Of a stretch of DNA of 64,000 nucleotides, positions 444 to 39,811 are shown piece after piece (position 1 is the first letter of the stretch; each line of letters opens with the position of its first letter). The notes below the pieces were generated by a model. That model made no database searches, was not told where the DNA came from, and saw nothing but the letters and a program-made list of their open reading frames with translations. Source of the stretch: Shigella phage vB_SboS_Gloob; sequence record OL615011; one strand, written 5' to 3'. A program made the position numbers and the translations under genes.

Positions 444-518
444 TGTATCTCCTGATGGAATTATGGCGGTTTCTTCTAATTAGCGAAACCAAAAGAGAGC
501 CGAAGCTCTCTTGTCAGA

Positions 519-890
519 TCATGCCCAGGTGGATTTACTTACGGAAAGGTAGTGATCTTTAGACTCGATCAGTTCTTTACCGGATTTGACGATGGCGTCC
601 ATGGAGTAGAATCCAATCTGGAACCCATCTTTCAGGAAGATCGTGTGGTGCATGTGGTCAACTGGCAAACCATTCACTGGGGAATTTTTGAAATTCCAAC
701 CTTCAGCCAGGAATTTTGCGTGGACCGCTTTCATCGTAGCGTCGCGATCACCGTTTGTCATGATACCCATTTCAACGTTGTCTACCAAACCACGGTCAAC
801 AATCTGACCTTCGAGGGTTACAACGCCGAAGCCAAGGGATTCAAGGATAGACATTTCTGGTTTGGTGAAATCTGTTTTGATCGCGTTCAT
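519..890 (-). CDS. hypothetical protein (start moved to the ATG preceded by AAGGA and CTATATC)
   Basis: ORF track 519..911; the track start is the TTG of the upstream TTGAAA element; sigma70-like promoter just upstream. Confidence 0.5.
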   Translation of the reverse strand: MNAIKTDFTKPEMSILESLGFGVVTLEGQIVDRGLVDNVEMGIMTNGDRDATMKAVHAKFLAEGWNFKNSPVNGLPVDHMHHTIFLKDGFQIGFYSMDAIVKSGKELIESKDHYLSVSKSTWA

Positions 891-938
891 GATATAGTTC
901 CTTCGTTTCAAGTTGGTGTCGTACTGCTTATGGAATGA

Positions 939-967
939 AGTATAGGGAAGGATATTGAAGAAGTAAA
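939..967 (-). promoter_or_regulatory. sigma70-like promoter (TTTACT, 17 nt spacer, TATACT), copy 1 of a duplicated cassette
   Basis: Hexamers read on the minus strand upstream of the gene at 519..890; overlaps an upstream hairpin at about 967..982. Confidence 0.45.
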
Positions 968-997
968 GGGGCGAAAGCCCCTTTTATTGAATTATTT

Positions 998-1636
998 TTA
1001 CGGCGTTGGGTTCACCACAGGAATATGGAATCTGATCCCGGCGATGATATCCTTCAGCTGAGGCTTCCATCCATCCACCAAACGGGGGAGAGCGATAGCA
1101 CCAGGCTGAACTAAAATGATGTCGCTGCCTGTGATATTGTGCTGAGGGAACTGGGCAAGGTACTGCTCCATGGTGACACCCTCATCAATCAGAACCGCAC
1201 CGACGTCAGACGATGCGTAGGTTGCACCCAGACCGTCAACGCCCCACGCCAAGATGCCCCAGTCAGGGATGTTGGCTTCAGATGTGATGGTGAATCCAAA
1301 CACGGTGTTCAGCGAGGTGAAGGAATAGACATCGTGAGTTATGTCATACACCAGATACCCCTTGGCCAGCATATCGGCAAAGATCGCGTCCGTATCTCCC
1401 GCCGCCAGAGTCGGTACAGTAAACAACAGCTCGCCCTCAGGAGGGGCAGGATACGTGCCGAGGGCATAGAGGCACCATGCATCAATGCACTTCTTAATGA
1501 ACGCCTCGGGTGCGACGTAATCGGCAAGGCGCACAGTCCCCGAGTACTCGGATACGATGATTCCTTCCTTCGCGCCCTGTAGAGCGATGAAGACCAAGAT
1601 ATGTTCATATCCGGTCTGAGATGGAGTGATGTTCAT
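998..1636 (-). CDS. hypothetical protein
   Basis: ORF track 998..1732; start moved to internal Met (MNITPSQ), which overlaps the stop of the upstream gene (ATGA coupling). Confidence 0.5.
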   Translation of the reverse strand: MNITPSQTGYEHILVFIALQGAKEGIIVSEYSGTVRLADYVAPEAFIKKCIDAWCLYALGTYPAPPEGELLFTVPTLAAGDTDAIFADMLAKGYLVYDITHDVYSFTSLNTVFGFTITSEANIPDWGILAWGVDGLGATYASSDVGAVLIDEGVTMEQYLAQFPQHNITGSDIILVQPGAIALPRLVDGWKPQLKDIIAGIRFHIPVVNPTP

Positions 1637-2628: not shown

Positions 2629-2938
2629 ACGTTTGTCTCAGGTGTTCAGTAAAGGATTTACCCAGCTTGCGGAATAGTTTAATACGACCAATGACTTTGA
2701 CGTAAACATCTCCGTGGCAGGGGCGTGGCTTACACCAGCACCCCAAGATCTTCCCGTCAAGCTCAAGGAGTTCATCCTCGGTGATATCCCCTTCAATCAG
2801 GCGCACATACAGGTCTTCTTCAAACAGTTCGATGCAGACGCCTCGTCCATGGTCTTTGACCTCGAACGGGTTCCCCCATTTACCAGGCCGACCAATGTAG
2901 ACATCGTATGGATCCTTCTTGAAGTGTACGACTTTCAC
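2609..2938 (-). CDS. small protein with RPGKWGNPF motif (DUF4326-like)
   Basis: VYIGRPGKWGNPF motif; proposed GTG start overlapping the upstream stop (GTGA). Confidence 0.35.
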   Translation of the reverse strand: MKVVHFKKDPYDVYIGRPGKWGNPFEVKDHGRGVCIELFEEDLYVRLIEGDITEDELLELDGKILGCWCKPRPCHGDVYVKVIGRIKLFRKLGKSFTEHLRQTYERRQR

Positions 2939-3249
2939 ATATCCTCCAGGTCGTCCCCTACCACAACCATGAATTCTAAGCCCCTGTCCATGATCAAGTC
3001 TATCGCTCTGGTGCTGCCGCTCCCCTGAACACACCAGTATTTGAATGGTCCAAAACGGTGTAGAATCTTGATGATCATCAACTGCATGCTTTTGTGGGCG
3101 TCATTGTAGCGCGACTTGTACTTCTTGGAGAACCATCCGTGGTTCAGGCTTTTGTAACGGTAAAGGAACCACAGGCGAACAGCCTTGTACAAACGCTTTT
3201 TCGCGCCTGTGGAATCCTTTGAAACCCTGATTACTTTGTTCATGATCAA
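2935..3249 (-). CDS. hypothetical basic protein
   Basis: 104-aa ORF; ATGA overlap with the gp46-like gene. Confidence 0.4.
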   Translation of the reverse strand: MIMNKVIRVSKDSTGAKKRLYKAVRLWFLYRYKSLNHGWFSKKYKSRYNDAHKSMQLMIIKILHRFGPFKYWCVQGSGSTRAIDLIMDRGLEFMVVVGDDLEDM

Positions 3250-7438: not shown

Positions 7439-7966
7439 TCAGATACCGATAAATTCATCAAAAGATCCAACAACCTTCTTCACTGAGATCTTGTCATTCT
7501 CAATCAGGAAGTTGCTGTCGTTTTTGGCTGCTGTGGCCCAGTCATCGGCAAGTTCGTTACCTTCGTGCCCCGCATGACCCTTAACCCATTTTAGTTCAAC
7601 TTCACAAATTGAACAAACGAGATCATAGATTCTGAACAGATCTTTGATGAGTTCAACGTTCTTGTCTGGGAAGCCCTGATACTCCCACTTCGCTCGCCAT
7701 TCGGTGACGCTCTTGATGGTGTATTGGCTGTCAGACCAAATTGTTGCCTTTGGTATTCTGCGCTCACCCTTTCCTGAGAATGCCCACAGCAGCTTCAATG
7801 CGTTGGTCACACCCAACAACTCGGCGATGTTGTTGGTGGACGGGGGAGGCAGGTGACCGAAGAACACCTTCCATTGCATACCCGATATTGGCCTGATGAC
7901 AAATGCCCATCCTGCGGCCTGGTTGGTCTTCGGGTTAGAACCCCCGTCAGAATAAATTTCTATCAT
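7439..7966 (-). CDS. rnhA: ribonuclease HI
   Basis: Strong match to the RNase HI fold: IYSDGG, TNNIAEL, WSDSQY, KWVKGHAGHEGNELADDWA; ORF track 7439..8062, start moved to MIEIY. Confidence 0.85.
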   Translation of the reverse strand: MIEIYSDGGSNPKTNQAAGWAFVIRPISGMQWKVFFGHLPPPSTNNIAELLGVTNALKLLWAFSGKGERRIPKATIWSDSQYTIKSVTEWRAKWEYQGFPDKNVELIKDLFRIYDLVCSICEVELKWVKGHAGHEGNELADDWATAAKNDSNFLIENDKISVKKVVGSFDEFIGI

Positions 7967-7968
7967 GA

Positions 7969-7976
7969 TATAAATA
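7969..7976 (+). promoter_or_regulatory. T4-type late promoter core TATAAATA
   Basis: TATAAATA about 36 nt upstream of the plus-strand ATG at 8012, in a divergent intergenic region. Confidence 0.45.
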
Positions 7977-11278: not shown

Positions 11279-11962
11279 TTACACCTCCACCGCGTGAGAC
11301 TTCAGGAGTTCATCAATCGCTTTCTGTCCCATATAAGAGAATGGGGTGCGCTGGTAGAACGCCCACAGAACCAACTGAACGACAGCGCGGGAACGGGTTT
11401 CGGCCGTCATCACCAGGTCGCTGAAATGAGGAGACTGTGCCGTCCACTGAATCACTTCGCCCAGGTCTTGATTACAGGTCACGGAGATGCGGAACTTGTT
11501 GCACAGATTGTCGACTTCTTTGTACGCATCGGTAGACACCCGAAGTTGGTCTGCATGCGCCCATGGTGTCGTGACGATTCTTTCACCCATCACTTTATCA
11601 GAGATAAACCAATCAATGGATTCAACAAACTTGCCGAAATGGTCGATGCGATAAATGCAGTCTCCCCCTTCCATAGAACGCATGGCATGATAGCGAGCGT
11701 CGATTTCGTTGTTGTGCATCGCGTTGAAGTCGATGAACACGCGACGCGCCAACACAACATCTTCCGGCTCCAGAGGGATGTATTCCCCTTCGTTGCTAGA
11801 CCTCCGGATGTTCGGATAATGTAGAATGCCGCTTAAATGCCCAGTGCAATATACATAACGAGGTCCAACACCCCCGACACGAGCATGAGCGACATAGGAT
11901 GGTTCTGTGAATCGCAAGTGGCCTTGATCGGCACCGACGATAATAGAATAAAGTTTTTCCAT
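11279..11962 (-). CDS. hypothetical protein
   Basis: ORF track 11279..11977; start moved to the ATG preceded by GAGA CTATATC. Confidence 0.5.
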   Translation of the reverse strand: MEKLYSIIVGADQGHLRFTEPSYVAHARVGGVGPRYVYCTGHLSGILHYPNIRRSSNEGEYIPLEPEDVVLARRVFIDFNAMHNNEIDARYHAMRSMEGGDCIYRIDHFGKFVESIDWFISDKVMGERIVTTPWAHADQLRVSTDAYKEVDNLCNKFRISVTCNQDLGEVIQWTAQSPHFSDLVMTAETRSRAVVQLVLWAFYQRTPFSYMGQKAIDELLKSHAVEV

Positions 11963-12019
11963 GATATAGTCTCTCAAATGAAAAGGGCGACCTTATGATA
12001 AGTCGCCCGAGGTTATTGA

Positions 12020-12928
12020 TTATTGGAAATCACCAACATACATGTTCAGCTTGTCGTCCCAGTTCAGAACAACACGGATCGTTGCGGTATCTTCTGGGAA
12101 GGTCAGTTTGTCACACATGGCGCGATTAACATAAGTCCCACTCTGGTTCACGTTGTAGTCCTTGCCTTGCATGATACCAAAACGCTTGAAGTCGCGTGTC
12201 ACCATCATGTTCAGGGTCGCCCATGGGAGTGATTCACGCAATGCTTTACACAGGATAATCTTTCCATTCGGCCTGAATGATACAAACAACTCATTAGCAA
12301 CCCGGCGGCGGGTGGGTGCCTCGAGTTCACGCAGGGAGATAAATTCAGAGGGATCGTCCAATGCACCCAGGGTGATCATGTCTTCGCGAACTTTATTGAC
12401 AATTTCAGTTACTGCTGACACGACTTCAACTGCCGGATTCGTCTTAAATGGCTCAACAGTCGTGGACATCTTGGATACAGACATCCCGCTGCCGTTGCGC
12501 TTCTCCGCATATTGCTCGACGGACTTGTCACTCACTGGAGGCAGTTTGGTGGCAGGAGTTATGACCGGGCTTGCATCTGGTTTCGCCTTTGGGGTACTCC
12601 GAGCCGCACGCAGCTTTTCCTGGGCTTCCAGAATGCGCTCTTGACGAGAAAGTGGAGCCTTTGGGGTGATCTTCGTACTGAAGTCAGAAACGCCGACCCA
12701 GTCACCCTGGTCATTACGCTTGGCGACCAGAGTCAGTTTGTGGATGATGCCCTGAAGTTTGCTCTCACGCAAGTTGTCGGCATACCAGAACTTCGCACCC
12801 ATCTCGAACTTCTCGGCGAAGATCACGCGAGCGTCTTCGTGTACCAACATAACTTTGGCTGTGTTGGGGGCAAAAGCCTTATTCTTTTCGATAATCGCCG
12901 CAGCGATTGATTTGGTCAGGAGCATCAC
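12020..12928 (-). CDS. hypothetical protein
   Basis: 302-aa ORF. Confidence 0.5.
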   Translation of the reverse strand: MMLLTKSIAAAIIEKNKAFAPNTAKVMLVHEDARVIFAEKFEMGAKFWYADNLRESKLQGIIHKLTLVAKRNDQGDWVGVSDFSTKITPKAPLSRQERILEAQEKLRAARSTPKAKPDASPVITPATKLPPVSDKSVEQYAEKRNGSGMSVSKMSTTVEPFKTNPAVEVVSAVTEIVNKVREDMITLGALDDPSEFISLRELEAPTRRRVANELFVSFRPNGKIILCKALRESLPWATLNMMVTRDFKRFGIMQGKDYNVNQSGTYVNRAMCDKLTFPEDTATIRVVLNWDDKLNMYVGDFQ

Positions 12929-14937: not shown

Positions 14938-15308
14938 AACGTACCCCCGACAGAGATCAAGAACTCTTCTTCAATGGTCGTGACCGGGCGGCGGTTGCGG
15001 GTTTCGATCATGAAGCCCCAGCCGCCGTCGGCGACGTTGCCAAAGGTCTTGACGCCAAAGGTCTTCTTCCCGTTGGAGCAGGCATAGAAGTCCAGGATGA
15101 ACGGGCTACCCTGATTGTCGATCCCACGGTTTACGCCGTCCGCTACACAGCGCTCAATCATCTTCCCGTTCTTATACAGAACGAGGTCTTGGCCATACGC
15201 CTTGAAAGCATAAACGCCGCTGGTAGACACTCCGGTGATGACAGGAGGAGCGGAAACAGCAGAGAAGGAAGCGCCCAGCAGGGCAACAGCGAGGATTAAC
15301 TTTTTCAT
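14934..15308 (-). CDS. putative secreted protein
   Basis: ORF track 14934..15329; start moved to MKKLILAVALLGASFSAVSA (signal peptide) preceded by AGAG CTATATC. Confidence 0.5.
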   Translation of the reverse strand: MKKLILAVALLGASFSAVSAPPVITGVSTSGVYAFKAYGQDLVLYKNGKMIERCVADGVNRGIDNQGSPFILDFYACSNGKKTFGVKTFGNVADGGWGFMIETRNRRPVTTIEEEFLISVGGTL

Positions 15309-15332
15309 GATATAGTCTCTTGGTTTCAAATG

Positions 15333-15354
15333 GGCGGGGTAATCATACCCCGCC
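15333..15354 (-). terminator. intercistronic hairpin followed by ATTTGAAA and CTATATCATG
   Basis: ggcggggtaatcataccccgcc stem-loop between two same-strand genes. Confidence 0.4.
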
Positions 15355-15367
15355 GGAGTTTATAGAA

Positions 15368-15613
15368 TTAGCTGATGTGCTTCAGAAGAGCGAAGAGGAT
15401 CGCGGCCTTGGCTTTCACCTTGCCGACGACGCCTGTCTCAACATCGACTTCTTCAGCAACCCACTCTTTGCCCTTCTTGCTGATGATAACGTCACGGCGC
15501 TGGGCATATACCTCTTTGGTCGCGTACACGCGGCGGAACCCTTTGGCGCGGAGTAGTCCCCAATTGCGGTCAATTTCTACGGAGGTTTCGACCATTTTGT
15601 TCTTATTTGACAT
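15368..15613 (-). CDS. hypothetical protein
   Basis: 81-aa ORF. Confidence 0.4.
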   Translation of the reverse strand: MSNKNKMVETSVEIDRNWGLLRAKGFRRVYATKEVYAQRRDVIISKKGKEWVAEEVDVETGVVGKVKAKAAILFALLKHIS

Positions 15614-15776
15614 CTGTGACCTCGATCACGTTAGCAACGTTGCGCCAGAATTCACGTCCTTCGGAATCAACGACCAAAATTTGTTTGTTGCTGCGAGCCT
15701 TAACTGTCAGGACAGGAGCAGTTCCGAACTCACCTACCCATTTGGTTTCTTTTACTTTCGATCCAGACATGATCAT
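15603..15776 (-). CDS. hypothetical small protein
   Basis: ORF track 15603..15791; start moved to the ATG with AAGGA spacing. Confidence 0.35.
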   Translation of the reverse strand: MIMSGSKVKETKWVGEFGTAPVLTVKARSNKQILVVDSEGREFWRNVANVIEVTDVK

Positions 15777-15899
15777 AATGTAATCCTTCATCTCAATCTG
15801 GTGAACCCCATCGTTCGCCAGTTATTGAATAATAGGATATTCCTTAGAGGAAGTAAACCCCTAAAAGTAAAAATCCCCAACAAACGTTGGGGACTTCTG

Positions 15900-16268: not shown

Positions 16269-18512
16269 TTAGATTTTGATCTCTTTCTCTGCCAGTTCGG
16301 CAGTGACCTTGTACTTCACACCATCCACTTCAACTTCCATGGTGGACTCTTCCAGGTCGAGGTCGGTGAACCAGCCGTGGCCAGCAACGATACCATAAAC
16401 CACTTTAGACAGCGTCTTGTTCAGGGCGCGGACTTCGGTGATGGCCGCCTTGGCAGCAGCGTCGATCCAGTTTTCGATCAGCTGTTTCTGTACGGCTTCA
16501 GGCACGGCAGTGATCGCAGGAGACTTCACGAATGCTTCGTATTCCTTCAGAGCATTGGCGATGAACAAGTCACCCGCATTGAGTTTCTTGTTCTCGGCAA
16601 TCTTCTTCTGTACTGCCGCGATGCTCGGCAGAGAAGACGCTCCAGCGATCTTAACGTTCAGCTCACGGCTCATGTAGACATCCGTGGAGTCCTTCAGTTC
16701 GGTCTTCGGTGAGAAGCCGTAATCACGGATGCCGTAGGAGGACAGGAACTCAGCCGCCTCAGCGCCGTACTGTACTGCCAGGCCTTTGGCGTTGCCTTTG
16801 CCAACCAGTTCATCACGGAAGAACTTCAGCACCTTCTGCTTGCCTTTCAGGGCTTCCAGACGGACATTATCCGCAAAGAACTGAGCAGCACTGATGTTCT
16901 TGACCATGGCGCGGTTGACCAGCGGTACGCTTTCCAGGTTCAGGACAAACACTTCCGGACCACCGAACACATGGACGCCCATCTGGCACAGATTGGTTAC
17001 AACTTCAACATCAGCCCTGAACGGCAGAGTCTTCACGTTGATGATGCCGTCTTTGACGATGGTGTAGTTGCGCCATTGGAAAGTATCCAGTTCTTCAGGC
17101 AGACCGAACTTCTTCTGCACGAACTCCGGAATCGCCACAGTGCCGTGCTGGACAGTGCGTACACTGATATTAGGGCGTTCGGAGTTATAGACCAAATCGC
17201 TGATTGGCACAACACCCAGATCGTTGGTAGGTTCGAACGTCGGGTTCCACTCTTCGTGCTCGGCCAGCTTGAGAGCCAGGGCTTTGCGCTCTTCTTTGGA
17301 CTCGGCGTTCGCGATCTGTTCTGCCAGCTTGTCTTCGGTATCGTCCAGTTTCTGAGCCGTACCGCGACCGATGCTCTTGTAGGAGAACATAGGATGTTTG
17401 GTGGCAACACACACGCCAGCTTCAGCCAGATACGTCAGCACGTCAACGACGGTCGTCGCATCTTCAGCCGGGACCAGGTCATAGTCAATACCGTCAACGC
17501 CGCGCAGCTGGTCATCAACGATGGCCTGGGTCAGATCAACTTTGATGTTGGAGTAGTCCTGCTTGGTGAAGCAGTTGCTGTACTGTTTGATGAAGCGGAC
17601 GTCGCCCGTTTTCTTCAGTGCAGCCCACACCAGGTCTGCGTCCATGATGTGTACGCCGTAGAACGCCAGCACGTATGCCGCCTGGATGTCCGCCAGCGCA
17701 TCAAGTTGGTCGATCATGTTAGGATTGACGACCCACAGCTTCGTGACGCTCTCAGGGATGCTCACGTGGCCAACGGGATGCTCTGCGTCTGCCTGTACCG
17801 CCAGAACAGTTGCTACGCCGTTTTCAACGTAGATGGCATGATCATACAGCAACGGAACATCAACAACCACCTTCGGAACTGAGGACTTCAGCACGGTTTC
17901 CAGCTCGGCCTGATACTCAACCTGACCTTCGGCAAACACGTGAGTCGCACCGGAGCGCTCAGACATCAGAGCCAGCAGTTCGCGGTTACAGTACCAGCCG
18001 TATTCGATGAAAGTGACGTTGTCGAACGCGGAAGGAAGTTTTTCGGCGGTGTCCAGGATCTCATTGGAGCGCCAGCAGTTGTCATAACCATCGGTCATGA
18101 ACGCCAGGTTGTTGACGTAGCCGGGTTTCTTCAGGTCACGCGCAGTATCCATCGCCAGTTTCAATGGCTCAACAAAACCAGTACAGCCGGACGGTTGTAG
18201 GAAGCGGTCGATCAGTTTGTTCAGCTCGCTCAGGTCAGATGCTGCACTAACCTGACGGCCAGCGAACACAGTACCAAAGTCGCCACGGGATGAGAAATAC
18301 AGAACACTCACAGTGTCTTCCGGTTTCACCAGAGAAGGCAGGTTCTCCTTCAGATGCTTACGGACTTCAGGGAGCGCCCGGTACATTGAACCGGAAATGT
18401 CTACAACGATTACATGGTTGGACGGAGCAGCAGTCGCAACCACATTCTTAAATTCTAATGATTCAATCATTGTTCTCTTCGCCTTTTGCGTAAGGGTTAA
18501 GTTCAGACTCAT
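16269..18512 (-). CDS. large protein with N-terminal von Willebrand factor A (vWA) domain
   Basis: MIDAS motif VVVDISGSM near the N-terminus; 747 aa. Confidence 0.5.
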   Translation of the reverse strand: MSLNLTLTQKAKRTMIESLEFKNVVATAAPSNHVIVVDISGSMYRALPEVRKHLKENLPSLVKPEDTVSVLYFSSRGDFGTVFAGRQVSAASDLSELNKLIDRFLQPSGCTGFVEPLKLAMDTARDLKKPGYVNNLAFMTDGYDNCWRSNEILDTAEKLPSAFDNVTFIEYGWYCNRELLALMSERSGATHVFAEGQVEYQAELETVLKSSVPKVVVDVPLLYDHAIYVENGVATVLAVQADAEHPVGHVSIPESVTKLWVVNPNMIDQLDALADIQAAYVLAFYGVHIMDADLVWAALKKTGDVRFIKQYSNCFTKQDYSNIKVDLTQAIVDDQLRGVDGIDYDLVPAEDATTVVDVLTYLAEAGVCVATKHPMFSYKSIGRGTAQKLDDTEDKLAEQIANAESKEERKALALKLAEHEEWNPTFEPTNDLGVVPISDLVYNSERPNISVRTVQHGTVAIPEFVQKKFGLPEELDTFQWRNYTIVKDGIINVKTLPFRADVEVVTNLCQMGVHVFGGPEVFVLNLESVPLVNRAMVKNISAAQFFADNVRLEALKGKQKVLKFFRDELVGKGNAKGLAVQYGAEAAEFLSSYGIRDYGFSPKTELKDSTDVYMSRELNVKIAGASSLPSIAAVQKKIAENKKLNAGDLFIANALKEYEAFVKSPAITAVPEAVQKQLIENWIDAAAKAAITEVRALNKTLSKVVYGIVAGHGWFTDLDLEESTMEVEVDGVKYKVTAELAEKEIKI

Positions 18513-18678
18513 CAGCGGCTTCGATGCGCGCCTTTACAGAGTCCAGCATATTGTTGATAAACTCACGAGACTGCTCCAGCTGAGCCAAGAGCACATCCTT
18601 TGGAGCATAGTTCTGAATGCAAGCCGGAATACTTTCAGACGTCGCCTTCAGGTCGGTAAAACATTCTTTCAGTACCAT
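18463..18678 (-). CDS. hypothetical small acidic protein
   Basis: 71-aa ORF between the vWA gene and the NAMPT-like gene. Confidence 0.3.
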   Translation of the reverse strand: MVLKECFTDLKATSESIPACIQNYAPKDVLLAQLEQSREFINNMLDSVKARIEAADESELNPYAKGEENND

Positions 18679-18755
18679 TTGATCTCACTTAACAGAGACG
18701 ACGCCCTGTTGGATTTAATAGCGGTCTTCACAGACATCAGGTTTACCTCAAAACA

Positions 18756-18779: not shown

Positions 18780-20444
18780 TCAGATTTGTGATGCCAATTC
18801 TGCCACCAGAGGAGCAGCACGAACACGCGCATCTTCCAGAGTCTGGGTGTTGAAGAACTTGCCGTCACGATACACCAGCTGGTGCTGGTTGTCGGCGTCT
18901 TGCACCTGATCAAAGGTGATACCGTCAACCAACACTAGTTTACCCTGAGAGTCTTTAATGACTTTAAGGAAACCACGCGCAGACTTTTTAGTCCCGCCTT
19001 TGTCGGTCTTCGGCTCTTTGAAGATCTCACGGAATTCGCCGTTCACTTTACCAGCCGTTGCTTTCACTGCCGTGCCAGTACTGTCACGGGTGTTCATCTG
19101 GTAGGTGTAGGAACCGATACCGAACACCACGTTGATGGAAGCAAAGTTCCGGCCAGCCAGACGACCAAAGATCTGGTCTTCACGTGCCAGGGTGATGGAG
19201 TCGCCGTAAATCAGACCGATGTGTTCGTCCAACAGGAAGTGACCAGTTTCGGTCTGGGTCCCGCCAAAGATCTCCCACAGGCGCTGGATAGAGCCGACCG
19301 CTTCTGAACGACTGATGATATTGCGGTCATCTGCCATCAGAGAGTTGATCGTGCCTTCGCCTGTAATCAGGTGATAGGTGTTCGTCTCTTCGATGTGAAT
19401 GACTTCGGTGCTGCTAGACACGCCGCTGATGTTCAGCATAGCGCGGTCTTTGAACCCCTCAATGCGGTAGCCGCCGACGATATGAACTGGGTCGCCCGAG
19501 TCAGGGCGGATCACGACTTTGCCGTTGCGTGCCATGATAATATCTTTCAGGCGCGGCAGATAGTCGTCGATGACCTGCCAGTAATCCCACGCATCAGACA
19601 CGATGCTGACGATGCCATCAGGATACACGTCCTGCACCAGGCGGCGGAAGGTTTCGAATTCACCATCCTTCGTACCCATACACATCACGGCGTGTTCGGT
19701 AGCCGCAACAGAACCAGCAACGACATAGTCTTCGTCGATGTCTGCGCCATAATACTCTTCTACGAAGTCCAGGGCAGGGTTGGTATCGGTGCCTTTGAAG
19801 AACACCAGATGACCGGAACCGGAAGACGCCGCGTCATGCCACCCACTCATACCACGGAAGGAGAAGTCGTGGCCTTGGTAGTCGATGAACCAATGGTCCG
19901 GCGACACGCCTGTAGCGAGGGCAGCTTTCACCATCAGTGCCTTGTAATGCAGAGCGATGGTGGCGTTCGTCATCGGCTTCCAGATCTCAGAGCTGAACAC
20001 AGTCTCCAGATAGTTGGTCAGCCAGTAGAACTCCGGCAGGGTGTTGAACATCACATACACCGGAACGCCATATGGGCACATGGTGCCTTCAGGCAGAGCA
20101 CGGACTTCGATAGGCAGGTAGCCGAGGTCATGCAGGGCTTCAATATGCTCTGTGCCGACGCGGCCTGGACCCAGGACTTTGTTCATGCGACGGGCATACT
20201 TCTTCAACACCTTGGCCTTTGGGCGCTGGAAGAATGCTTCGTCAAACAGTTCGTGGAACCAGGTCATGAAGCCCTGGATGCCCCAGACCACCACGCCGTT
20301 CTTCGGCAGGTGAGAGTTGAACAGTTTGTTGGAGCGCGGAGTTCCGTTGGAGAACACCAGCTCGCTGCCTTCAGGGAACTGATAGATGTGCCCTGATTTG
20401 TAGAAGTCGATTGCATGGATTGGATCTAAGTGGCGCATGCTCAT
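18780..20444 (-). CDS. nicotinamide phosphoribosyltransferase (NAMPT/NadV) family enzyme; candidate nicotinamide ADP-ribose transferase
   Basis: Collinear with human NAMPT: LPIEVRALPEG...EFYWLTNYLETV, HDFSFRG, GHLVFFKGTDT, VIRPDSGDP. Confidence 0.85.
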   Translation of the reverse strand: MSMRHLDPIHAIDFYKSGHIYQFPEGSELVFSNGTPRSNKLFNSHLPKNGVVVWGIQGFMTWFHELFDEAFFQRPKAKVLKKYARRMNKVLGPGRVGTEHIEALHDLGYLPIEVRALPEGTMCPYGVPVYVMFNTLPEFYWLTNYLETVFSSEIWKPMTNATIALHYKALMVKAALATGVSPDHWFIDYQGHDFSFRGMSGWHDAASSGSGHLVFFKGTDTNPALDFVEEYYGADIDEDYVVAGSVAATEHAVMCMGTKDGEFETFRRLVQDVYPDGIVSIVSDAWDYWQVIDDYLPRLKDIIMARNGKVVIRPDSGDPVHIVGGYRIEGFKDRAMLNISGVSSSTEVIHIEETNTYHLITGEGTINSLMADDRNIISRSEAVGSIQRLWEIFGGTQTETGHFLLDEHIGLIYGDSITLAREDQIFGRLAGRNFASINVVFGIGSYTYQMNTRDSTGTAVKATAGKVNGEFREIFKEPKTDKGGTKKSARGFLKVIKDSQGKLVLVDGITFDQVQDADNQHQLVYRDGKFFNTQTLEDARVRAAPLVAELASQI

Positions 20445-21295
20445 TTTACACGTCCTGTATTTTCAGTTTTGAAAGGAAGGCCGTCGGTGGTGATATTCTC
20501 CCACCAGACAGTGTCGGCATACACAGCATCATAGATCCCGTCGAAAACAGAGAGACCTTTGCTGAAGATGCCATGGGTGACGAAGAGCGTCATGTGCTTA
20601 GGCTCGTGCTTCTGAAGCTCTTTACCCAGCTCAACAAACGTGCGCCCGCCATCGCAGATATCATCAACCACCACCAGATAGCGGTCTTTGATCAGTTCAG
20701 GGTTTGTAATGCTCACCCCAATGATCTCACCAGTCTTGGTGTCACGGTTCTTGTGGCCGTAGACAACAGGAACACCATCCAACGACAGGCTGAGGGCTTC
20801 GGTCTTCTTCGCCGCGCCGCCGTCAGGGGCTACTAGCACAGCGTTGTTCCCACGGATGAACCAGCCCAGATACTGCCGCACGATGTAATCTTGCGGGACA
20901 ACATGGACGTTGTTGATCAGAGAAGACACGACATGGCTGTGAGGGTCTTTGATCGCCACGCGGTCAAAGTTCATGCTATTGATGAACTCAGCCGCCCACT
21001 TCACGGACAGAGGCTCGCCGAAGTCGCAATGGCGGTCCTGGCGAGCATACGGGAAGTAAGGGATATACGCATGGAAGGTCGTCAGACGGTCCACGTTACC
21101 CAGGCCGCGCACGGCGTTTACCAGAAGCGCCAGCTCAATGAAGTCGGCTGATGATTTGATGTGGGCATCAATCACAACCGTCTGAATCTTACCGACAGGA
21201 ATACCAGCCTTTTGGATCTTGATATGTTCCTCACCACCTGGGAAGGTGAAGTGTTTGTAGAACACATCTTGGTCGTTCAATTTCAAACGAAACAT
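20441..21295 (-). CDS. ribose-phosphate pyrophosphokinase (PRPP synthetase) family enzyme; candidate ADP-ribose pyrophosphate synthetase
   Basis: IPYFPYARQDRH and VVVDDICDGGRT match Prs motifs; ATGA overlap with the NAMPT-like gene. Confidence 0.8.
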   Translation of the reverse strand: MFRLKLNDQDVFYKHFTFPGGEEHIKIQKAGIPVGKIQTVVIDAHIKSSADFIELALLVNAVRGLGNVDRLTTFHAYIPYFPYARQDRHCDFGEPLSVKWAAEFINSMNFDRVAIKDPHSHVVSSLINNVHVVPQDYIVRQYLGWFIRGNNAVLVAPDGGAAKKTEALSLSLDGVPVVYGHKNRDTKTGEIIGVSITNPELIKDRYLVVVDDICDGGRTFVELGKELQKHEPKHMTLFVTHGIFSKGLSVFDGIYDAVYADTVWWENITTDGLPFKTENTGRVK

Positions 21296-24263: not shown

Positions 24264-24378
24264 GATGTAGTCTTCCTGTTTCAGTTCAAATGTGCGCCCC
24301 GTTTGCCAGAGCGCTTCGTTTAAGTGAGGTCAATAATACGTTGAAAAAGGTTATTGAAGAATGAAGTAAAGGGAATCT

Positions 24379-26554: not shown

Positions 26555-27019
26555 TTATTCGCTTTTGGCCTTTGTAGGCCGGATAATGTATTTTGGGACC
26601 AGCTTCCATTCAGGAACCTGATCGTGTTTAACCACTTTAATGCGTGACATATCGGCGGCTTCGGTGACCTGCTCGGGGTGAATGACCTTCACCATGTTCC
26701 ACTGCTCAAGCAGCTTGATGATGCGGTTCATCCTCAGGACATCTTCGCGGTTAAACCCGTTGTAATGCCCGTCCAGCATAAACAGATGCTTGAAGTGGAC
26801 GATATAATACTTGCCATACTTATGAAGAATATGACAAGTCTGATACAGAGTATTCGGCTCTTGGCGCGTGTTTACCCCAATTCGGCTCAGTGTTTCCTTG
26901 ATCCCCAGGAATATTCCTGGCCGATCTTGGTTCAATTGAACTTCAACCATACAATCAACGATGCTGGCCTCATCGTTGACGGCTGAAATGTTCAATATGT
27001 CTAGCGTATTGCGCGCCAT
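26555..27019 (-). CDS. regA: translational repressor RegA
   Basis: Collinear with T4 RegA (LYQTCHILHKYGKYYIVHFKHLFMLDG ... EWKLVPKYIIRP); the true start may be the internal Met at 26950. Confidence 0.85.
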   Translation of the reverse strand: MARNTLDILNISAVNDEASIVDCMVEVQLNQDRPGIFLGIKETLSRIGVNTRQEPNTLYQTCHILHKYGKYYIVHFKHLFMLDGHYNGFNREDVLRMNRIIKLLEQWNMVKVIHPEQVTEAADMSRIKVVKHDQVPEWKLVPKYIIRPTKAKSE

Positions 27020-35703: not shown

Positions 35704-36012
35704 TCAAGAAAAATTGAACTTGTTGTCAACGAAGGTCAGGCGGGAGCATACTTCTTCAACTGCATCAACCATCATAAAATCTTTGAATGCTTCATGCAAG
35801 GCATTCAGGAAGGAAGCTGGGACTAAACCACAAGCCGGGTTGTCAAACAGAGCTGAAGCAACTACTGCGTTGTAAGTTGAATCAGGAGTAGCAGACTGGC
35901 ACAACATCATGGCTTCAGCGTTCTTTACCGCATGGTATTTAAAGGTGTTAACCACAGTGGTTTTGTTGGATTTTGCCAGTTGAGCTTCGAATTGTTCTTT
36001 GGTGATTGTCAT
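35704..36012 (-). CDS. hypothetical protein
   Basis: ORF track 35704..36033; same upstream cassette as the gene at 519..890. Confidence 0.5.
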   Translation of the reverse strand: MTITKEQFEAQLAKSNKTTVVNTFKYHAVKNAEAMMLCQSATPDSTYNAVVASALFDNPACGLVPASFLNALHEAFKDFMMVDAVEEVCSRLTFVDNKFNFS

Positions 36013-36059
36013 GATATAGTTCCTTCGCTTCAAGTTGGTATTGTGTTGCTTGTCCTTGA

Positions 36060-36087
36060 AGTATACGGGGTTTATTGAAGAAGTAAA
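36060..36087 (-). promoter_or_regulatory. sigma70-like promoter (TTTACT, 16 nt spacer, TATACT), copy 2 of a duplicated cassette
   Basis: Hexamers read on the minus strand; about 70 bp of similarity with the cassette at 893..982. Confidence 0.45.
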
Positions 36088-36112
36088 CCCCGTTTATTGA
36101 ATAAATTTAAAA

Positions 36113-36349
36113 TTATTTGAAGCGATCCGGAAGGGTGTCGTGAACCTCGGCGCTCAGCACCAGGTACTTGCCGTCTTTAGTGGGGAAGCAATAGTCTTTC
36201 TTGATGTGTCGCATGTGTTCAGCCGTGGCCGCCACGCAGTCTTCGGTCACATCAGTCTTCTCACCGACCCACATGCTGGTCTTGGTGTTCAGGGTGCCCT
36301 GGAAGATTGTCCCAGTGAGTGGGCTTGCGCCGATCTTTTTAATTCTCAT
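36113..36349 (-). CDS. hypothetical protein
   Basis: Start at the ATG preceded by GGGAGA; ATGA overlap with the upstream gene. Confidence 0.4.
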   Translation of the reverse strand: MRIKKIGASPLTGTIFQGTLNTKTSMWVGEKTDVTEDCVAATAEHMRHIKKDYCFPTKDGKYLVLSAEVHDTLPDRFK

Positions 36350-36723
36350 AATTTCTCCCAAGTCCAGGTTTGAGCTTTAGCCTTTCCGATGACAGGAATA
36401 TCCCGGTGCATATTCCGGAATGACCCAGTCTGATAGAAACTGATCTTCACCCGTTCATGGTTGACGCTCTGAGCCCACACATGATGGCCGTCTGGGTAAA
36501 ATTCACGTTCGTTACCGCCGTCTTTGGCCACCCGAGTTACGACATAAGTGTCGATCAGATAATCGAATACCGTGTTAGAATCCGGGGTGGCTTCGCCCTG
36601 GCTTGTGGTCCAATCACCAACGCAATTTGAGTAAAGAAGATGATTCGGAACCTCAGTCAGGACAGTCATTCCTTCTTTGATTTCGAACACATCACCAACT
36701 TGAAGCAGGGGTAAATTGCTCAT
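36346..36723 (-). CDS. hypothetical protein
   Basis: 125-aa ORF. Confidence 0.45.
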   Translation of the reverse strand: MSNLPLLQVGDVFEIKEGMTVLTEVPNHLLYSNCVGDWTTSQGEATPDSNTVFDYLIDTYVVTRVAKDGGNEREFYPDGHHVWAQSVNHERVKISFYQTGSFRNMHRDIPVIGKAKAQTWTWEKL

Positions 36724-36731
36724 AACAGACC

Positions 36732-37172
36732 TCAGCTAATGCGGAACAGATGTGGATAACCACCAGGATGGCCCTGACCCGTAACGAACACATCGAACTT
36801 AGATCCTTTGATCAGGCCGGGGAGATTACCAGAGTCCAGCAGTTCGCGGATCTGATCCATCGCCAGCATCCAGTTCTTAGCAGGTTCAGCTTCAGCCTCT
36901 CCACGATTGAGGACGAGTTCACCTTCAGAATAATACTTCCCGCTGTCTTTCATATAGTACAGCTTGATATGGATGTACTGAGGGGACGGGACCAAACGCC
37001 AGCCATCGTCAATCAGATCCTGGCGATCATTATCCAGGGACTGGTAATCGATCTCACCAGACGCCAGACCATAGCTGCGCATGTAGCGGAACTTCTCAAC
37101 ACGGTCTTTTACGTCAGAGATGAAGAACTCCTTCGTGGCAGGACTGATGAAAATGTATTTCTCTTTTGACAT
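36732..37172 (-). CDS. hypothetical protein
   Basis: ORF track 36732..37193; start moved to the ATG preceded by AGGAAGG and CTATATC. Confidence 0.5.
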   Translation of the reverse strand: MSKEKYIFISPATKEFFISDVKDRVEKFRYMRSYGLASGEIDYQSLDNDRQDLIDDGWRLVPSPQYIHIKLYYMKDSGKYYSEGELVLNRGEAEAEPAKNWMLAMDQIRELLDSGNLPGLIKGSKFDVFVTGQGHPGGYPHLFRIS

Positions 37173-37189
37173 GATATAGATCCTTCCTT

Positions 37190-37414
37190 TCAAAGAATGA
37201 TGTGTTCGTCGATATCGGACTGCGTTGCAATCTCCCAGCGGACGACATTTTCGGTTGTGATGAAATCACGGTTCAGGTGAGAGGCTGGCACATACACCAT
37301 CGTGTCGACCATGAAGTAACGCTGCTCGTTGTTCCAGGAGTCAACATAAGCCTCAATAAGGCATACTTCGATCACTTCGCCTTTCGGCTTCTTCACAGTC
37401 TTTTTCAGGTACAT
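37190..37414 (-). CDS. hypothetical small protein
   Basis: Start at the ATG preceded by GAGGG. Confidence 0.4.
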   Translation of the reverse strand: MYLKKTVKKPKGEVIEVCLIEAYVDSWNNEQRYFMVDTMVYVPASHLNRDFITTENVVRWEIATQSDIDEHIIL

Positions 37415-38479: not shown

Positions 38480-39811
38480 TTAGAACAGACCTTTGATCAG
38501 ACCTTTACGGAAGTAAGGGTTGCTGTCCTGAGCGATACCATCGGCAGTCACGTAAACCTGTGGGTCCTGGTTCGCTGGGATCTGTACGAATGGGTTCGCG
38601 CAGATGCCGTAACGAGTTTTGAACGCCATACGTGGGCTGAAGGTGGTTTCACCCTGGGTGCGGTACATTTCCAGCGGCACATACGGCGCGAAGAAGATAC
38701 CAGCATCCAGCGCGGTTGCGCCTTTGTACGCCAGGGTGATGTATTCAGCAACCGCATACGGGTCGATGTATACACGCATACCGTTGGACAGTACACCAGC
38801 GAAGGTCTGGCCAGTTGGGTCGATCGCCAGCTTGGTGTTTTCCTGCAGCGCCGGAGCGTAATCCAGCATGCCGGACATTGCCAGAGCGGATGCTACGTTC
38901 GGAGAACACAGAACACGGTTGCCTTTACCACGACGGGTGTCAACACCGATGCCGTTCGCTTCAACTTCCAGCATGAAAGTCATGTACTTCCATTTTTCCA
39001 GCGCCCAACGACCGGAGATGTCGGTGGAGATGTCTACAACGCCGTTTGCGCCGAATTTTTTGAAGCGTACTGCACTGAAGTTCATGGTACGGATGAACTC
39101 ACGGTTCATTTCCGCCTGAATTTCAGTTACCATCACGTCGGACAGGATGCTGTCAACGTCTTCGCCGTGGATCGCCATCATGTCCTGGCGCAGTTCATGG
39201 CTGTAGTCAGCGTACAGGCCACGAGACTTCGCAGTCACGGTTGCTTTCTGAACGGTGATACCAACACGCGCCCATGGGTTGGTGGTGGTGCCCAGCAGTT
39301 CAGCGTCGGTGGTTGGCATGCCTTTACCGATGGTGGTCACGCCAGCGCCGGAACCTTCGATCTCGGCCTGAGTAAAGCCAGATGGATCGCCAGCCTGTAC
39401 AGTACCGTCACCAGAGTAGCCGGAATCAGCTTCCTGCATGAACAGTTCTTTACGGGACTGTTGGGTGTTGGATGAGTCGCCGACGCCCTGGCGAGCACGC
39501 AGAGCAAAGATCTGACCGTCAGGACCAGACAGCGGCTGTACGCCGAAGAAGTCCATCGCGATGTTGATCGGAGCCAGACGTTTTGCCATGTCGATCAGGA
39601 CTGGCTGCCATTTGCCCACAGAGTTGTTCACAGAACCAGGAGCGTCAGATTCGCCCAGGTTTTTGGCGTTCCACTCAGCCTGGTTTTGCAGCAGGCGGAC
39701 AGCAACGTTTTCGGCAGAAAGCGGCTGGATACTTTCAGATTCTTTCTGAAGAACTGGCAGCCACTGCTCGCGCATTTGTTCGGTAACAAGTTTCTTAGCC
39801 ATGATGGTCAT
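38480..39811 (-). CDS. 23: major capsid protein (T4 gp23-like)
   Basis: Strong C-terminal collinearity with T4 gp23 (FAGVL...RVYIDPYA, YKG...DAGIFFAPYV, KTRYGI.ANPF). Confidence 0.92.
   Translation of the reverse strand: MTIMAKKLVTEQMREQWLPVLQKESESIQPLSAENVAVRLLQNQAEWNAKNLGESDAPGSVNNSVGKWQPVLIDMAKRLAPINIAMDFFGVQPLSGPDGQIFALRARQGVGDSSNTQQSRKELFMQEADSGYSGDGTVQAGDPSGFTQAEIEGSGAGVTTIGKGMPTTDAELLGTTTNPWARVGITVQKATVTAKSRGLYADYSHELRQDMMAIHGEDVDSILSDVMVTEIQAEMNREFIRTMNFSAVRFKKFGANGVVDISTDISGRWALEKWKYMTFMLEVEANGIGVDTRRGKGNRVLCSPNVASALAMSGMLDYAPALQENTKLAIDPTGQTFAGVLSNGMRVYIDPYAVAEYITLAYKGATALDAGIFFAPYVPLEMYRTQGETTFSPRMAFKTRYGICANPFVQIPANQDPQVYVTADGIAQDSNPYFRKGLIKGLF

Follow-up and report, generated by a model that had tools for sequence, protein, structure and literature searches.

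Two near-identical stretches of ~110 bases, both on the minus strand and each lying directly before a small gene, belong to a small family of intergenic cassettes, each a composite of several elements, and the family is conserved across the whole of the ViI-like phages (Ackermannviridae). We found them in a 64,000-nt stretch of Shigella phage vB_SboS_Gloob (OL615011; the window), an Agtrevirus-like Ackermannviridae phage whose nearest relatives are Agtrevirus. We think it fairly likely that each cassette joins an insulator of the kind found in the promoter-early stem-loop (PeSL) cassettes of the T4-like phages RB49/phi1, T4/PST and KVP40/nt-1 (Arbiol et al. 2010, PMC2839356; Comeau et al. 2014, PMC4122927) to a T4-early-type promoter for the host RNA polymerase and a translation-start unit, and that the whole also serves as portable homology for the exchange of ORFs.

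Reading and aligning both regions showed that copies A and B have in common ATTCAATAAA, a GGGG/CCCC hairpin, the blocks TTTACTTCTTCAATA (the -35 plus part of the spacer) and TATACTTCA (the -10), and a 29-nt block of leader, Shine-Dalgarno sequence and ATG (Table 1). This 29-mer, CCAACTTGAAACGAAGGAACTATATCATG at 888-916 in copy A and CCAACTTGAAGCGAAGGAACTATATCATG at 36010-36038 in copy B, has two occurrences in the window when up to 3 mismatches are allowed, against 0.00 expected from 100 shuffles, and only these two copies match TTTACT-N15-18-TATACT with at most 1 mismatch. The earlier note had described a duplicated regulatory module ahead of two unrelated small genes, in the order hairpin, TTTACT, spacer, TATACT, leader, ATG. 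The duplication is real and the module is conserved at both loci across Ackermannviridae genera; the downstream proteins have no BLASTP match to each other and fall into different PHROGs. Minus-strand reading and alignment bear out the proposed order in copy A. In copy B the series from TTTACT through a 16-nt spacer and TATACT to leader and ATG is as described, but the hairpin is not 5' of the -35; instead its arms flank the -35 and spacer and abut the -10. The extents given in that note, 893-982 and 36013-36091, do cover shared sequence, but the shared block reaches further upstream, to ATTCAATAAA.

Table 1. Cassettes, their parts, their relatives and the adjoining ORFs in the window.
Feature	Position	Strand	Basis or measure
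Cassette A, whole: A/T-rich block, hairpin, -35, spacer, -10, leader, Shine-Dalgarno (SD), ATG	888-1000	-	read, aligned
Cassette B, whole	36010-36112	-	read, aligned
ATTCAATAAA motif, A/T-rich upstream block, UP-element-like position	copy A 983-992; copy B 36094-36103	-	
Hairpin A, AAAGGGGC-TTTC-GCCCCTTT	965-984	-	-13.5 kcal/mol, z = -4.5
TTTACTTCTTCAATA in copy A: -35 TTTACT (962-967) and invariant 5' spacer half	953-967	-	
-10 TATACT of copy A, 17 nt past the -35; predicted start ~931-933	939-944	-	
Leader A, unstructured, conserved; SD GAAGGA (899-904), ATG (888-890)	888-938	-	
Slot-A ORF, 123 aa, phrog_31745, replaced by other ORFs in relatives	519-890	-	
Terminator-like hairpin closing slot A; homology with relatives resumes there	493-512	-	scan and comparison
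Hairpin B, arms ACGGGGTTTA (36084-36093) and TAAACCCCGT (36065-36074), 9-nt loop	36065-36093	-	-14.0 kcal/mol, z = -4.6
Promoter B: TTTACT 36082-36087, 16-nt spacer, TATACT 36060-36065	36060-36087	-	
Leader B: window-specific middle AAGGACAAGCAACACAAT, A/X-type 3' part, ATG 36010-36012	36010-36059	-	
Slot-B ORF, 102 aa, phrog_24635, mobile cargo gene	35704-36012	-	
Cassette C, diverged third copy	15774-15893	-	nhmmer profile search, E = 2.9e-5 (matched 15774-15862)
Parts of cassette C: terminator hairpin 15874-15893, TTTACT 15852-15857, N17, TATTAT 15829-15834, ATG 15774-15776	15774-15893	-	
Degenerate fourth relative: TTTACTTCATTCTTCAATAA ... TATTAT, non-canonical spacing	~24333-24370	-	
Half cassette: TAATTCTATAAA, GC hairpin, conserved leader TTTGAAACCAAGAGACTATATCATG, promoter absent	15306-15371	-	
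Half cassette: TCAATAA, GC hairpin, ...GAGAGACTATATCATG	11960-12026	-	
Leader-only copy: TTGAAAGGAAGGATCTATATCATG	37170-37196	-	

Several further relatives of the cassette occur in the window. The diverged cassette C precedes a 57-aa ORF (15603-15776); the Ag3 copy syntenic to it is the published Porf138, and window segment 15605-15863 is without a homolog in Ag3. Neither cassette A nor cassette B is annotated in the published description of the Ag3 genome. A cassette following the capsid gene ("slot X") was also sought in the window, where only a terminator lies 3' of that gene.

Conservation of the cassette extends well beyond the nearest relatives. A 121-nt cassette query matched 559 places in 273 phage records, mostly two per genome and in some cases three or four, and the hosts of these phages include Salmonella, Klebsiella, Escherichia, Dickeya, Shigella and Serratia, among others. 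Copies A and B sit at syntenic sites in Agtrevirus, Kuttervirus, Limestonevirus and Taipeivirus. Cassette A has a perfect counterpart in MK-13 (100% identity), its identity in Ag3, aagejoakim, RC-2014 and Magnus is 86-100%, and the core of cassette B, ACGGGGTTTACTTCTTCAATAAACCCCGTATACTTCA, is 100% identical in six genomes of four genera; mean pairwise identity is 0.98 in a 30-nt stretch over the B promoter, as against 0.72-0.81 in the upstream ORF. The invariant blocks are TTTACTTCTTCAATA and TATAMT, between which the 3' half of the spacer is free to vary while spacer length stays constant at 16-17 nt; the -10 is TATAAT or TATTAT in other family members, and the TTTACT...TATAMT pattern is kept even in the distant Miltonvirus phiMAM1. 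With up to 2 mismatches, TTTACTTCTTCAATA matches 19 times in 9 genomes, 18 of these in intergenic, sense-strand promoter contexts; a scan of IMG/VR with the same 15-mer gave at least 120 matches, mostly chance hits on unrelated contigs.

Are these promoters for the host polymerase? The earlier note called the element a good sigma70-like promoter, a description that does not survive scoring: TTTACT agrees with TTGACA at 4/6 positions and TATACT with TATAAT at 5/6, and the sigma-70 score of 9/12 is about as frequent as chance in the same regions. For the same reason the generic sigma-70/terminator scan is unusable as promoter evidence, although it recovered both promoters. What does speak, indirectly, for a promoter is the pattern of conservation, with invariant blocks at a spacing of 16-17 nt in intergenic, sense-strand positions, together with a close fit to the PeSL early-promoter consensus of T4/PST, TTTACW-N17-TAYWAT (PMC4122927), whose TTTACW is matched at 6/6 positions. 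The cassette is also similar to T4 early promoters, which are read by the host sigma-70 holoenzyme and have a GTTTAC-type -35 with A/T-rich sequence upstream: it carries a GTTTACT -35, a spacer of 16-17 nt and a TATAMT -10, and, in copy B, a block rich in A/T around -40 to -60. It departs from them in having C at position 5 of the -10 in most copies, and in a template hypermodified with 5-NeOmdU as opposed to the glucosyl-hmC of T4. From their sequence, the cassette promoters are predicted to be active and to act early; the literature on Ackermannviridae transcriptomes and promoters yielded in-silico lists only (Ag3, LIMEstone1), with no transcript-start, timing or reporter data found.

Two other promoter classes of T4 were considered and rejected, the middle class (MotA/AsiA) on a poor MotA-box match and wrong spacing, and the late class on the absence of TATAAATA, a motif from which the cassette -10 differs. 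A tblastn search with T4 AsiA gave only T4-like phages among the matches listed.

In ViI-like virions, 5-NeOmdU replaces ~40% of thymidines (PMC5889632), and its presence in a T-rich cassette promoter on injected DNA counts against the reading as a host-polymerase promoter.

The conserved block is ~16 nt long, beyond the needs of a -35 hexamer, and this raises the possibility of a factor-dependent promoter class, in which the invariant TCTTCAATAA within the spacer would be the site of a phage or host DNA-binding activator or repressor and the promoters would not be simple constitutive early ones. An inverted TTATTGAA lies ~13 nt upstream in many copies, the inverted pair TTATTGAA...TTCAATAA flanks the -35 in the C, X and third-locus copies and in phiMAM1, and copy B has a perfect 10-bp inverted repeat running from -35 to -10, which overlaps the promoter as an operator might. 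We nevertheless regard such a class as improbable: the upstream motif is direct, not inverted, in copies A and B themselves, TTCAATAA also stands 5' of plain, promoterless terminator hairpins, GGGG/CCCC hairpins are a usual feature of PeSLs (PMC2839356), and no candidate regulator was found, with no AsiA-type system among the matches listed. In the window, TTCAATAA has 8 occurrences on the minus strand and 1 on the plus strand, compared with ~0.8 expected per strand, and the ATTCAATAAA motif likewise occurs 5' of other hairpins.

Both hairpins are stable (Table 1). The stems of hairpin A, which includes GGGGCTTTCGCCCC at 968-981, are invariant between genera, and its loop differs (TTTC, AAAC, TTCG). 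This hairpin may act as an insulator or, for the DUF7270 gene upstream of it, as a weak intrinsic terminator. It is followed by TTTACTTCTTC, and the scan called it terminator-like on the plus strand and not on the minus strand. Because hairpin B is without a U-tract and that of hairpin A is weak, a terminator function is doubtful.

Downstream of the promoter, leader A is essentially unfolded (minimum free energy -0.7 kcal/mol; 195 of 200 shuffles fold as well or better), which rules out a structured 5' UTR or riboswitch. Could the conserved unit still act at the level of RNA? The leader (...GAAGGAACTATATCATGA) might serve as a translational operator, bound for instance by the phage's RegA repressor (26555-27019), with the hairpins as mRNA 3'-end or processing structures and the hexamers incidental. 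A RegA homolog is indeed present (PF01818, E = 1.9e-34), TATATCATG stands at six gene starts, on the sense strand in all six, a YAYAYY-ATG context is found at ~11 of ~76 starts, and there are leader-only and hairpin-plus-leader copies without a promoter. We find this account very hard to credit as a replacement for the promoter, since it leaves unexplained the invariant TTTACT...TATAMT blocks, at fixed spacing, 5' of the leader; the leader presents neither structure nor covariation to test, and an Rfam search of the whole window gave 0 matches. It is, moreover, compatible with the PeSL-like reading and not a true alternative to it.

The genes behind the cassettes differ between close relatives. 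In slot A, homology with Ag3, aagejoakim, RC-2014 and Magnus is lost at 886-888 and returns at 486-508, and in slot B homology with four relatives ends at ~35982-36009 and is regained exactly at 35704, so that in both slots the 5' breakpoint falls at the ATG and the 3' breakpoint at or just past the stop codon. Eight different, unrelated PHROGs without assigned function fill the two slots in six genomes, singly or paired (slot B of MK-13 has two ORFs), and the slot-A ORF of the window is present in just 27 phage records. The family of the slot-B ORF is found behind cassette copies at three loci in different phages: beyond the slot-B site itself, it adjoins the DNA polymerase gene in A221, PH4, YX22 and SP-9-14, and follows the major capsid gene directly (3') in ERZ26604xx metagenome contigs; it also has homologs in Dhillonvirus siphophages at 55-60% amino-acid identity. 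The slot-A ORF of aagejoakim is homologous to a Magnus ORF behind an extra post-capsid cassette (35% identity, E = 5e-16). Neither of the two window ORFs had a match in Pfam, PADLOC or a PDB sequence search, and the AF2 model of the slot-B ORF (pLDDT 86) had no Foldseek PDB neighbour at E <= 0.001. Compared with Ag3, 8 window segments in 40 kb are without a homolog, and three of them are the ORFs right behind cassettes A, B and C, for which a rough estimate over ~57 genes gives P ~0.002.

A simpler account would be a plain duplicated early promoter and leader with no role in gene exchange, the variable ORFs then reflecting general plasticity of accessory regions through illegitimate recombination or exchange via flanking genes. 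The five other segments replaced relative to Ag3 lie away from cassettes, so ORFs also turn over without one; at their 3' junctions the swaps have ordinary sequence in place of a cassette, so that a cassette can supply at most one of the two crossovers; and the copies are few and far apart. We still consider this account unlikely, as in four of four comparisons, and at both sites, the 5' breakpoint falls at the cassette end, the eight replaced segments include all three ORFs that adjoin a cassette, one ORF family is found behind cassette copies at three unrelated loci, and the leaders are mosaic, with A-type as well as B-type segments.

These mosaics occur in copy B of the window, of Ag3 and of Magnus, each of which mixes diagnostic segments of both types. 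In relatives the B leader is ACTGACTCTGAAATGAAGG, and in Gloob it is the A/X type ACCAACTTGAAGCGAAGG, so the near-identity of the 3' leaders of copies A and B is peculiar to Gloob. An A/X-type leader at copy B points to a recombinant cassette that arrived together with its ORF; homology of the window's slot B to the A221-type locus starts inside the leader and continues through the ORF.

Under the PeSL-like reading that we favour, a cassette runs, 5' to 3', from the A/T-rich ATTCAATAAA through a GGGG/CCCC hairpin and TTTACT, 16-17 nt, TATAMT to a leader free of structure, in which the Shine-Dalgarno sequence and the start context are strong. The hairpin would shield the slot from upstream transcription, the host sigma-70 holoenzyme would fire the promoter shortly after DNA entry, and the standard leader, judging from its sequence and fold, should allow efficient translation of any small ORF in the slot. 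The ~100 nt of conserved cassette would at the same time be homology common to different phages and loci, and recombination within it during co-infection could swap the downstream ORF with part of the leader, which is our proposed mechanism for the pattern observed in the genome comparisons.

A fixed promoter platform that expresses interchangeable promoterless ORFs is reminiscent of integron gene cassettes. One could imagine that the invariant 16-nt core TTTACTTCTTCAATAA and the GGGG/CCCC hairpin form the recognition site of a dedicated phage DNA-binding or recombination function, making an integron-like capture platform that moves small early ORFs among at least 4-5 fixed slots (A, B, C, the post-capsid site and the site beside the polymerase gene) and imports ORFs from unrelated phages such as Dhillonvirus. 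We hold this to be quite improbable. Unlike integrons, the cassettes have no integrase, attC/attI sites or arrays, and exchange presumably proceeds by general homologous recombination. The way in which promoter, small accessory ORF and terminator form one self-contained and patchily distributed unit also recalls the morons of lambdoid phages, which bring their own promoter and terminator and are inserted between conserved genes.

The two slots represent fixed genomic addresses for interchangeable small genes in Ackermannviridae, probably expressed early, and it is among genes of this kind that host-takeover and anti-defence functions usually hide. Members of the family are being developed for biocontrol and therapy against Salmonella, E. 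coli O157, Shigella, Klebsiella and Dickeya. A simple profile of the cassette would retrieve the cargo genes from any Ackermannviridae genome, and anyone engineering these phages would find in the cassettes a ready-made promoter/leader module and natural sites for insertion. The idea of PeSLs as regulatory cassettes that double as recombination linkers would also extend beyond T4-like phages.

The resemblance to PeSLs has limits. Both are ~100-nt intergenic composites of an A/T-rich block, a GGGG...CCCC stem-loop, a sigma-70-like -35/-10, a Shine-Dalgarno sequence and an ATG; both are repeated within a genome (two strong copies, one diverged and one degenerate in the Gloob window, far fewer than in RB49), adjoin small ORFs without assigned function that differ between close relatives, and include copies that look chimeric. 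PeSLs, however, belong to T4-like myoviruses (Tevenvirinae/Straboviridae), and as the closest relatives of the window are Agtrevirus, in the Ackermannviridae, we class its cassettes as PeSL-like and not as homologs of the RB49/T4 elements. Whereas PeSLs come in dozens, clustered in hyperplastic regions, an Ackermannviridae genome has only 2-4 cassettes, and their fixed, syntenic sites are separated by 15-35 kb; with so few copies at such distances, RB49-style mini-circle excision between adjacent cassettes is impossible for A and B. Promoter and terminator activity and mini-circles have been demonstrated experimentally for RB49 PeSLs, whereas the promoter activity of the Gloob cassettes is a prediction from sequence. 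The PeSL hairpin precedes the promoter, unlike that of copy B, which encloses the -35 and spacer, and those of the C-type and phiMAM1 copies, which lie in the 5' UTR. A final difference is that the TCTTCAATA half of the spacer is invariant across Ackermannviridae cassette copies, to a degree that exceeds the needs of a sigma-70 promoter and that the PeSL-like model does not account for.

Two cassettes in the window, each made of a hairpin, a promoter, a leader and an ATG and here called copies A and B, appear from their sequence to be a conserved regulatory and translation-start element of the promoter-early stem-loop (PeSL) type, one that in Ackermannviridae, the family to which this ViI-like myovirus belongs, would define hot slots where small accessory genes are found. 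The duplication proposed in an earlier note is confirmed by alignment of A with B (83% identity across 136 columns, pairwise), by a 29-nt block of leader and start that occurs exactly twice in the window with ≤3 mismatches allowed (0 expected), and by the full promoter pattern TTTACT-N15-18-TATACT, found in the window with ≤1 mismatch only at A and B. The shared block starts further upstream than that note had it, at ATTCAATAAA, and the proposed order, with the hairpin first, does not describe copy B, where the -35 and spacer lie inside the inverted repeat ACGGGGTTTA / TAAACCCCGT, not after it. Hairpins A and B are stable (-13.5 and -14.0 kcal/mol, z ~ -4.5), the leaders are essentially unfolded (MFE -0.7 kcal/mol; 195/200 and 181/200 shuffles fold at least as well), and an A/T-rich block occupies the UP-element position in copy B. 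On the plus strand (962-988) the T-tract that follows hairpin A, TTTTATTGAATTATTTT, is much better than its coding-strand counterpart, and the hairpin may be mainly a terminator of antisense transcription, or bidirectional.

Almost all genes here lie on the minus strand. Cassette A is preceded by a DUF7270 gene whose homologs in relatives are annotated as virion structural protein, and the Shigella phages MK-13 and ChubbyThor match its surroundings at 99.8% identity. Cassette B lies within a series of small ORFs flanked by the major capsid gene and a homolog of the gp3 tail-completion gene (the latter by Ag3 synteny), in surroundings 94-96% identical, gaps excepted, to Ag3, MK-13 and P46FS4; the window's arrangement at B occurs in no record of a 50,697-phage collection. 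Two Enterococcus faecium-labelled records ('Enterococcus phage Efm 3-10'; OR844944.1, OR844942.1) share 90-96% identity with this Ackermannviridae sequence and are probably contaminating or mislabelled contigs.

Positions of the cassettes and associated features (window coordinates unless a genome fragment is named)
Feature	Position	Strand	Detail
Copy A	888-1000	minus	TAAAAATAATTCAATAAAA-GGGGCTTTCGCCCC-TTTACT-TCTTCAATATCCTTCCC-TATACT-TCATTCCATAAGCAGTACGACACCAACTTGAAACGAAGGAACTATATC-ATG
Copy B	36010-36112	minus	TTTTAAATTTATTCAATAAAC-GGGG-TTTACT-TCTTCAATAAACCCCG-TATACT-TCAAGGACAAGCAACACAATACCAACTTGAAGCGAAGGAACTATATC-ATG
Copy C, diverged	15774-15862	minus	profile search
Degenerate cassette relative	near 24333-24370		
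Half cassettes	15306-15371, 11960-12026, 37170-37196		hairpin-plus-leader or leader-only
phiMAM1 copies	L136 26148-26251, 40728-40835		GC hairpin downstream of -10
C-type copies	L124 19740-19838 (Ag3); L127 26080-26185		GC hairpin downstream of -10
TTCAATAA sites, examples	990, 12019, 15828, 24357, 36078, 36100, 37468	minus	
TATATCATG starts	888-896, 7964-7972, 11960-11968, 15306-15314, 36010-36018, 37170-37178	minus	
Major capsid gene	38480-39802		Pfam Gp23
RegA translational-repressor homolog	26555-27019		PF01818, E = 1.9e-34
Segments without Ag3 homolog or adjoining cassette	36346-36723, 2935-3243, 18475-18724, 19767-20630		other variable accessory ORFs/segments
phrog_9866 ORF	L124:4195-4530, L126:3805-4140, L127:41533-41868		MTQLKNF...
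ORFs with L/I-x-E	L124:40192-40473 (Ag3 orf178), window 519-890, L125:40834-41193		

Is the cassette peculiar to this phage? A 121-nt copy A query matched 559 places in 273 phage records, mostly 2 per record and 3-4 in some, the hosts being Salmonella, Klebsiella, Escherichia, Dickeya, Shigella, Serratia and Enterobacter. We compared 40-45 kb from Ag3 (Agtrevirus), aagejoakim (Kuttervirus), RC-2014 (Limestonevirus), Magnus (Taipeivirus) and phiMAM1 (Miltonvirus), and the first four carry A and B copies at the same syntenic positions. A six-genome alignment gives the B promoter window a mean pairwise identity of 0.98, against 0.72-0.81 for the upstream ORF, with an invariant 37-nt B core, ACGGGGTTTACTTCTTCAATAAACCCCGTATACTTCA; the stems of hairpin A are likewise invariant and its loop varies (TTTC, AAAC, TTCG). 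Searching with a profile built from 15 copies recovered copy C, a copy upstream of Ag3 orf138 already published as 'Porf138', an additional Magnus copy after the capsid gene, and a third-locus copy in A221 and SP-9-14; neither A nor B is included in the Ag3 paper's promoter and terminator lists. With ≤2 mismatches allowed, nine genomes or fragments contain 19 occurrences of the motif TTTACTTCTTCAATA, 18 of them intergenic and on the sense strand. The phiMAM1 and C-type copies are the same building blocks in a different order, their hairpin sitting within the 5' UTR, immediately ahead of the TTGAA...AGGA leader, and not upstream of the -35. In copy C itself, the sequence following the -10 (15829-15815), TATTATTCAATAACTGGCG, is a repeat of the spacer found in the third-locus cassette of A221, TTCAATAACTGGCG, and looks like what recombination left of a second cassette overlapping this one.

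All copies hold TTTACTTCTTCAATA and TATAMT constant at 16-17 nt spacing, the 3' half of the spacer drifting freely, and phiMAM1 has the same layout with TATTAT or TATAGT as its -10. The hexamers fit the PeSL promoter consensus of T4 and PST, TTTACW-N17-TAYWAT (PMC4122927), the sigma-70 score is 9/12, which is not above chance matches nearby, and the spacer motif TCTTCAATA is invariant, beyond sigma-70 needs. The cassette is almost certainly a selected functional element; it is very probably a promoter for the host polymerase, and there is a good chance that this promoter is early. The literature searched gave no transcription start sites or timing data. A T4-late promoter was rejected, the -10 differing from the late motif TATAAATA; for late transcription the family has homologs of gp55, gp33 and gp45 (PMC3121705). 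We see no sign of a MotA/AsiA middle mode, since tblastn with T4 AsiA gave only T4-like phages among the matches listed. In ViI-like virion DNA, 5-NeOmdU replaces ~40% of thymidines (PMC5889632), which may affect how the promoter is recognised.

Behind each cassette lies a replaceable ORF position, slot A or slot B. BLAST homology with four relatives stops at the ATG of slot A (886-888) and restarts at 486-508, just beyond the stop codon, at the 493-512 hairpin; at slot B it stops at ~35982-36009 and restarts precisely where the stop codon ends, at 35704. Slot A holds a 123-aa phrog_31745 ORF in the window and in MK-13, phrog_5704 then phrog_9866 in Ag3, phrog_9866 in RC-2014 and Magnus, and phrog_13016 in aagejoakim, and slot B holds a 102-aa phrog_24635 ORF in the window, phrog_16902 then phrog_10263 in MK-13, phrog_10263 in Ag3 and RC-2014, homologs of phrog_16902 and phrog_17538 in Magnus, and phrog_17538 in aagejoakim. 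Slots with two ORFs have a hairpin-plus-leader half cassette between them. Only 8 segments of at least 80 nt lack an Ag3 homolog in 40 kb, and three of these are the ORFs that immediately follow cassettes A, C and B (P ~0.002, a rough estimate over ~57 genes, that all three cassette-adjacent genes fall among those replaced). The earlier reading, of co-regulated early genes or a duplicated regulatory module, concerned something real and non-random and was broadly right, but it was incomplete: the cassette is family-wide and marks exchangeable ORF slots.

The cargo is found at other sites as well. Homologs of the slot-B ORF (80-82% amino-acid identity) occur in eight Ackermannviridae records including A221, PH4, YX22 and SP-9-14; in the two inspected, A221 and SP-9-14, the homolog lies outside slot B, adjoining the DNA polymerase gene (in A221 ~75 kb from cassette A). 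It is preceded there by a cassette copy, TTATTGAATAAAG-TTTACT-TCTTCAATAACTGGCG-TATACT-...CTGAAGAGAAGGAAATACATC-ATG, and followed by a GCCCCTCCGGGGGC hairpin and leader module, which also closes the MK-13 and Magnus slot-B ORFs. In metagenomic Ackermannviridae contigs (up to 159 kb) a 77%-identical homolog, P0003, directly follows the major capsid gene, with a cassette copy before it and a phrog_17538-type ORF after. Nucleotide homology between the window's slot B and the A221 locus begins within the leader (query position 20, ~36047) and spans the ORF; the window's B leader carries an A/X-type 3' segment (X being the post-capsid site) where relatives have the B-type, and the Ag3 B and Magnus B leaders are other segment mixtures. 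In Magnus, the ORF that follows the post-capsid cassette is a homolog of the ORF in slot A of aagejoakim (35% identity, E = 5e-16). Exchange must be inter-genomic, because the 35 kb separating A from B contains essential genes, and the cassette is able to supply the 5' crossover only; that it mediates ORF exchange is a reading we favour slightly. About 60 Dhillonvirus-type E. coli siphophages and two Pantoea phages also have members of the slot-B family phrog_24635 (55-60% amino-acid identity), a case of a small gene transferred horizontally across families. The phrog_9866 ORF is 96-98% identical in amino acids between Magnus, a Taipeivirus, and the Aglimvirinae Ag3 and RC-2014, its flanking DNA being only ~75% identical between these lineages, which suggests that genera have exchanged this cargo recently.

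Among described systems the nearest is the PeSL of T4-like phages, a ~100-nt conserved composite motif of A/T-rich block, GGGG/CCCC stem-loop, sigma-70-like promoter, SD and ATG, which flanks ORFans differing between close relatives, has measured promoter and terminator activity, and recombines into mini-circles (PMC2839356; PMC4122927). Our cassette resembles it in its anatomy, in being repeated, in lying next to variable ORFs and in having chimeric copies, but differs in belonging to Ackermannviridae, in having few copies, at syntenic sites that are fixed and far apart, in where the hairpin sits (across the promoter in B, within the 5' UTR in C-type and phiMAM1 copies) and in its invariant spacer motif. 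We therefore call it PeSL-like, an element that would work like a PeSL, and not a homolog of the T4/RB49 elements; the literature searched contained no report of PeSLs outside T4-like phages.

No slot protein of the six genomes has a Pfam domain, and neither window slot ORF has a match in PADLOC or PDB sequence searches. AF2 modelled the slot-B ORF with confidence (pLDDT 86; helical bundle plus beta-hairpin), and Foldseek gave no match to the model at E ≤ 0.001. Some slot ORFs carry L/I-x-E near the N-terminus (MTTKAQLIE|A, ...SILE|S, ...ILKE|A), recalling the motif by which T4 internal proteins are targeted to the capsid and cleaved, and head genes surround slot B and the post-capsid slot; that some cargo proteins might be packaged is pure speculation.

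TTCAATAA occurs 8 times on the sense (minus) strand of the window and once antisense (plus), against ~0.8 expected per strand. It stands in the spacers of promoters and directly precedes GC-rich terminator hairpins (TCAATAA-[A/C]-GGGG...), plain ones included, and its bias and placement suggest an orientation-specific signal of its own. Six genes in the window share the identical start context TATATCATG (~0.5 expected by chance), which may be a common translational operator; YAYAYY-ATG is common to ~11 of the ~76 putative starts.
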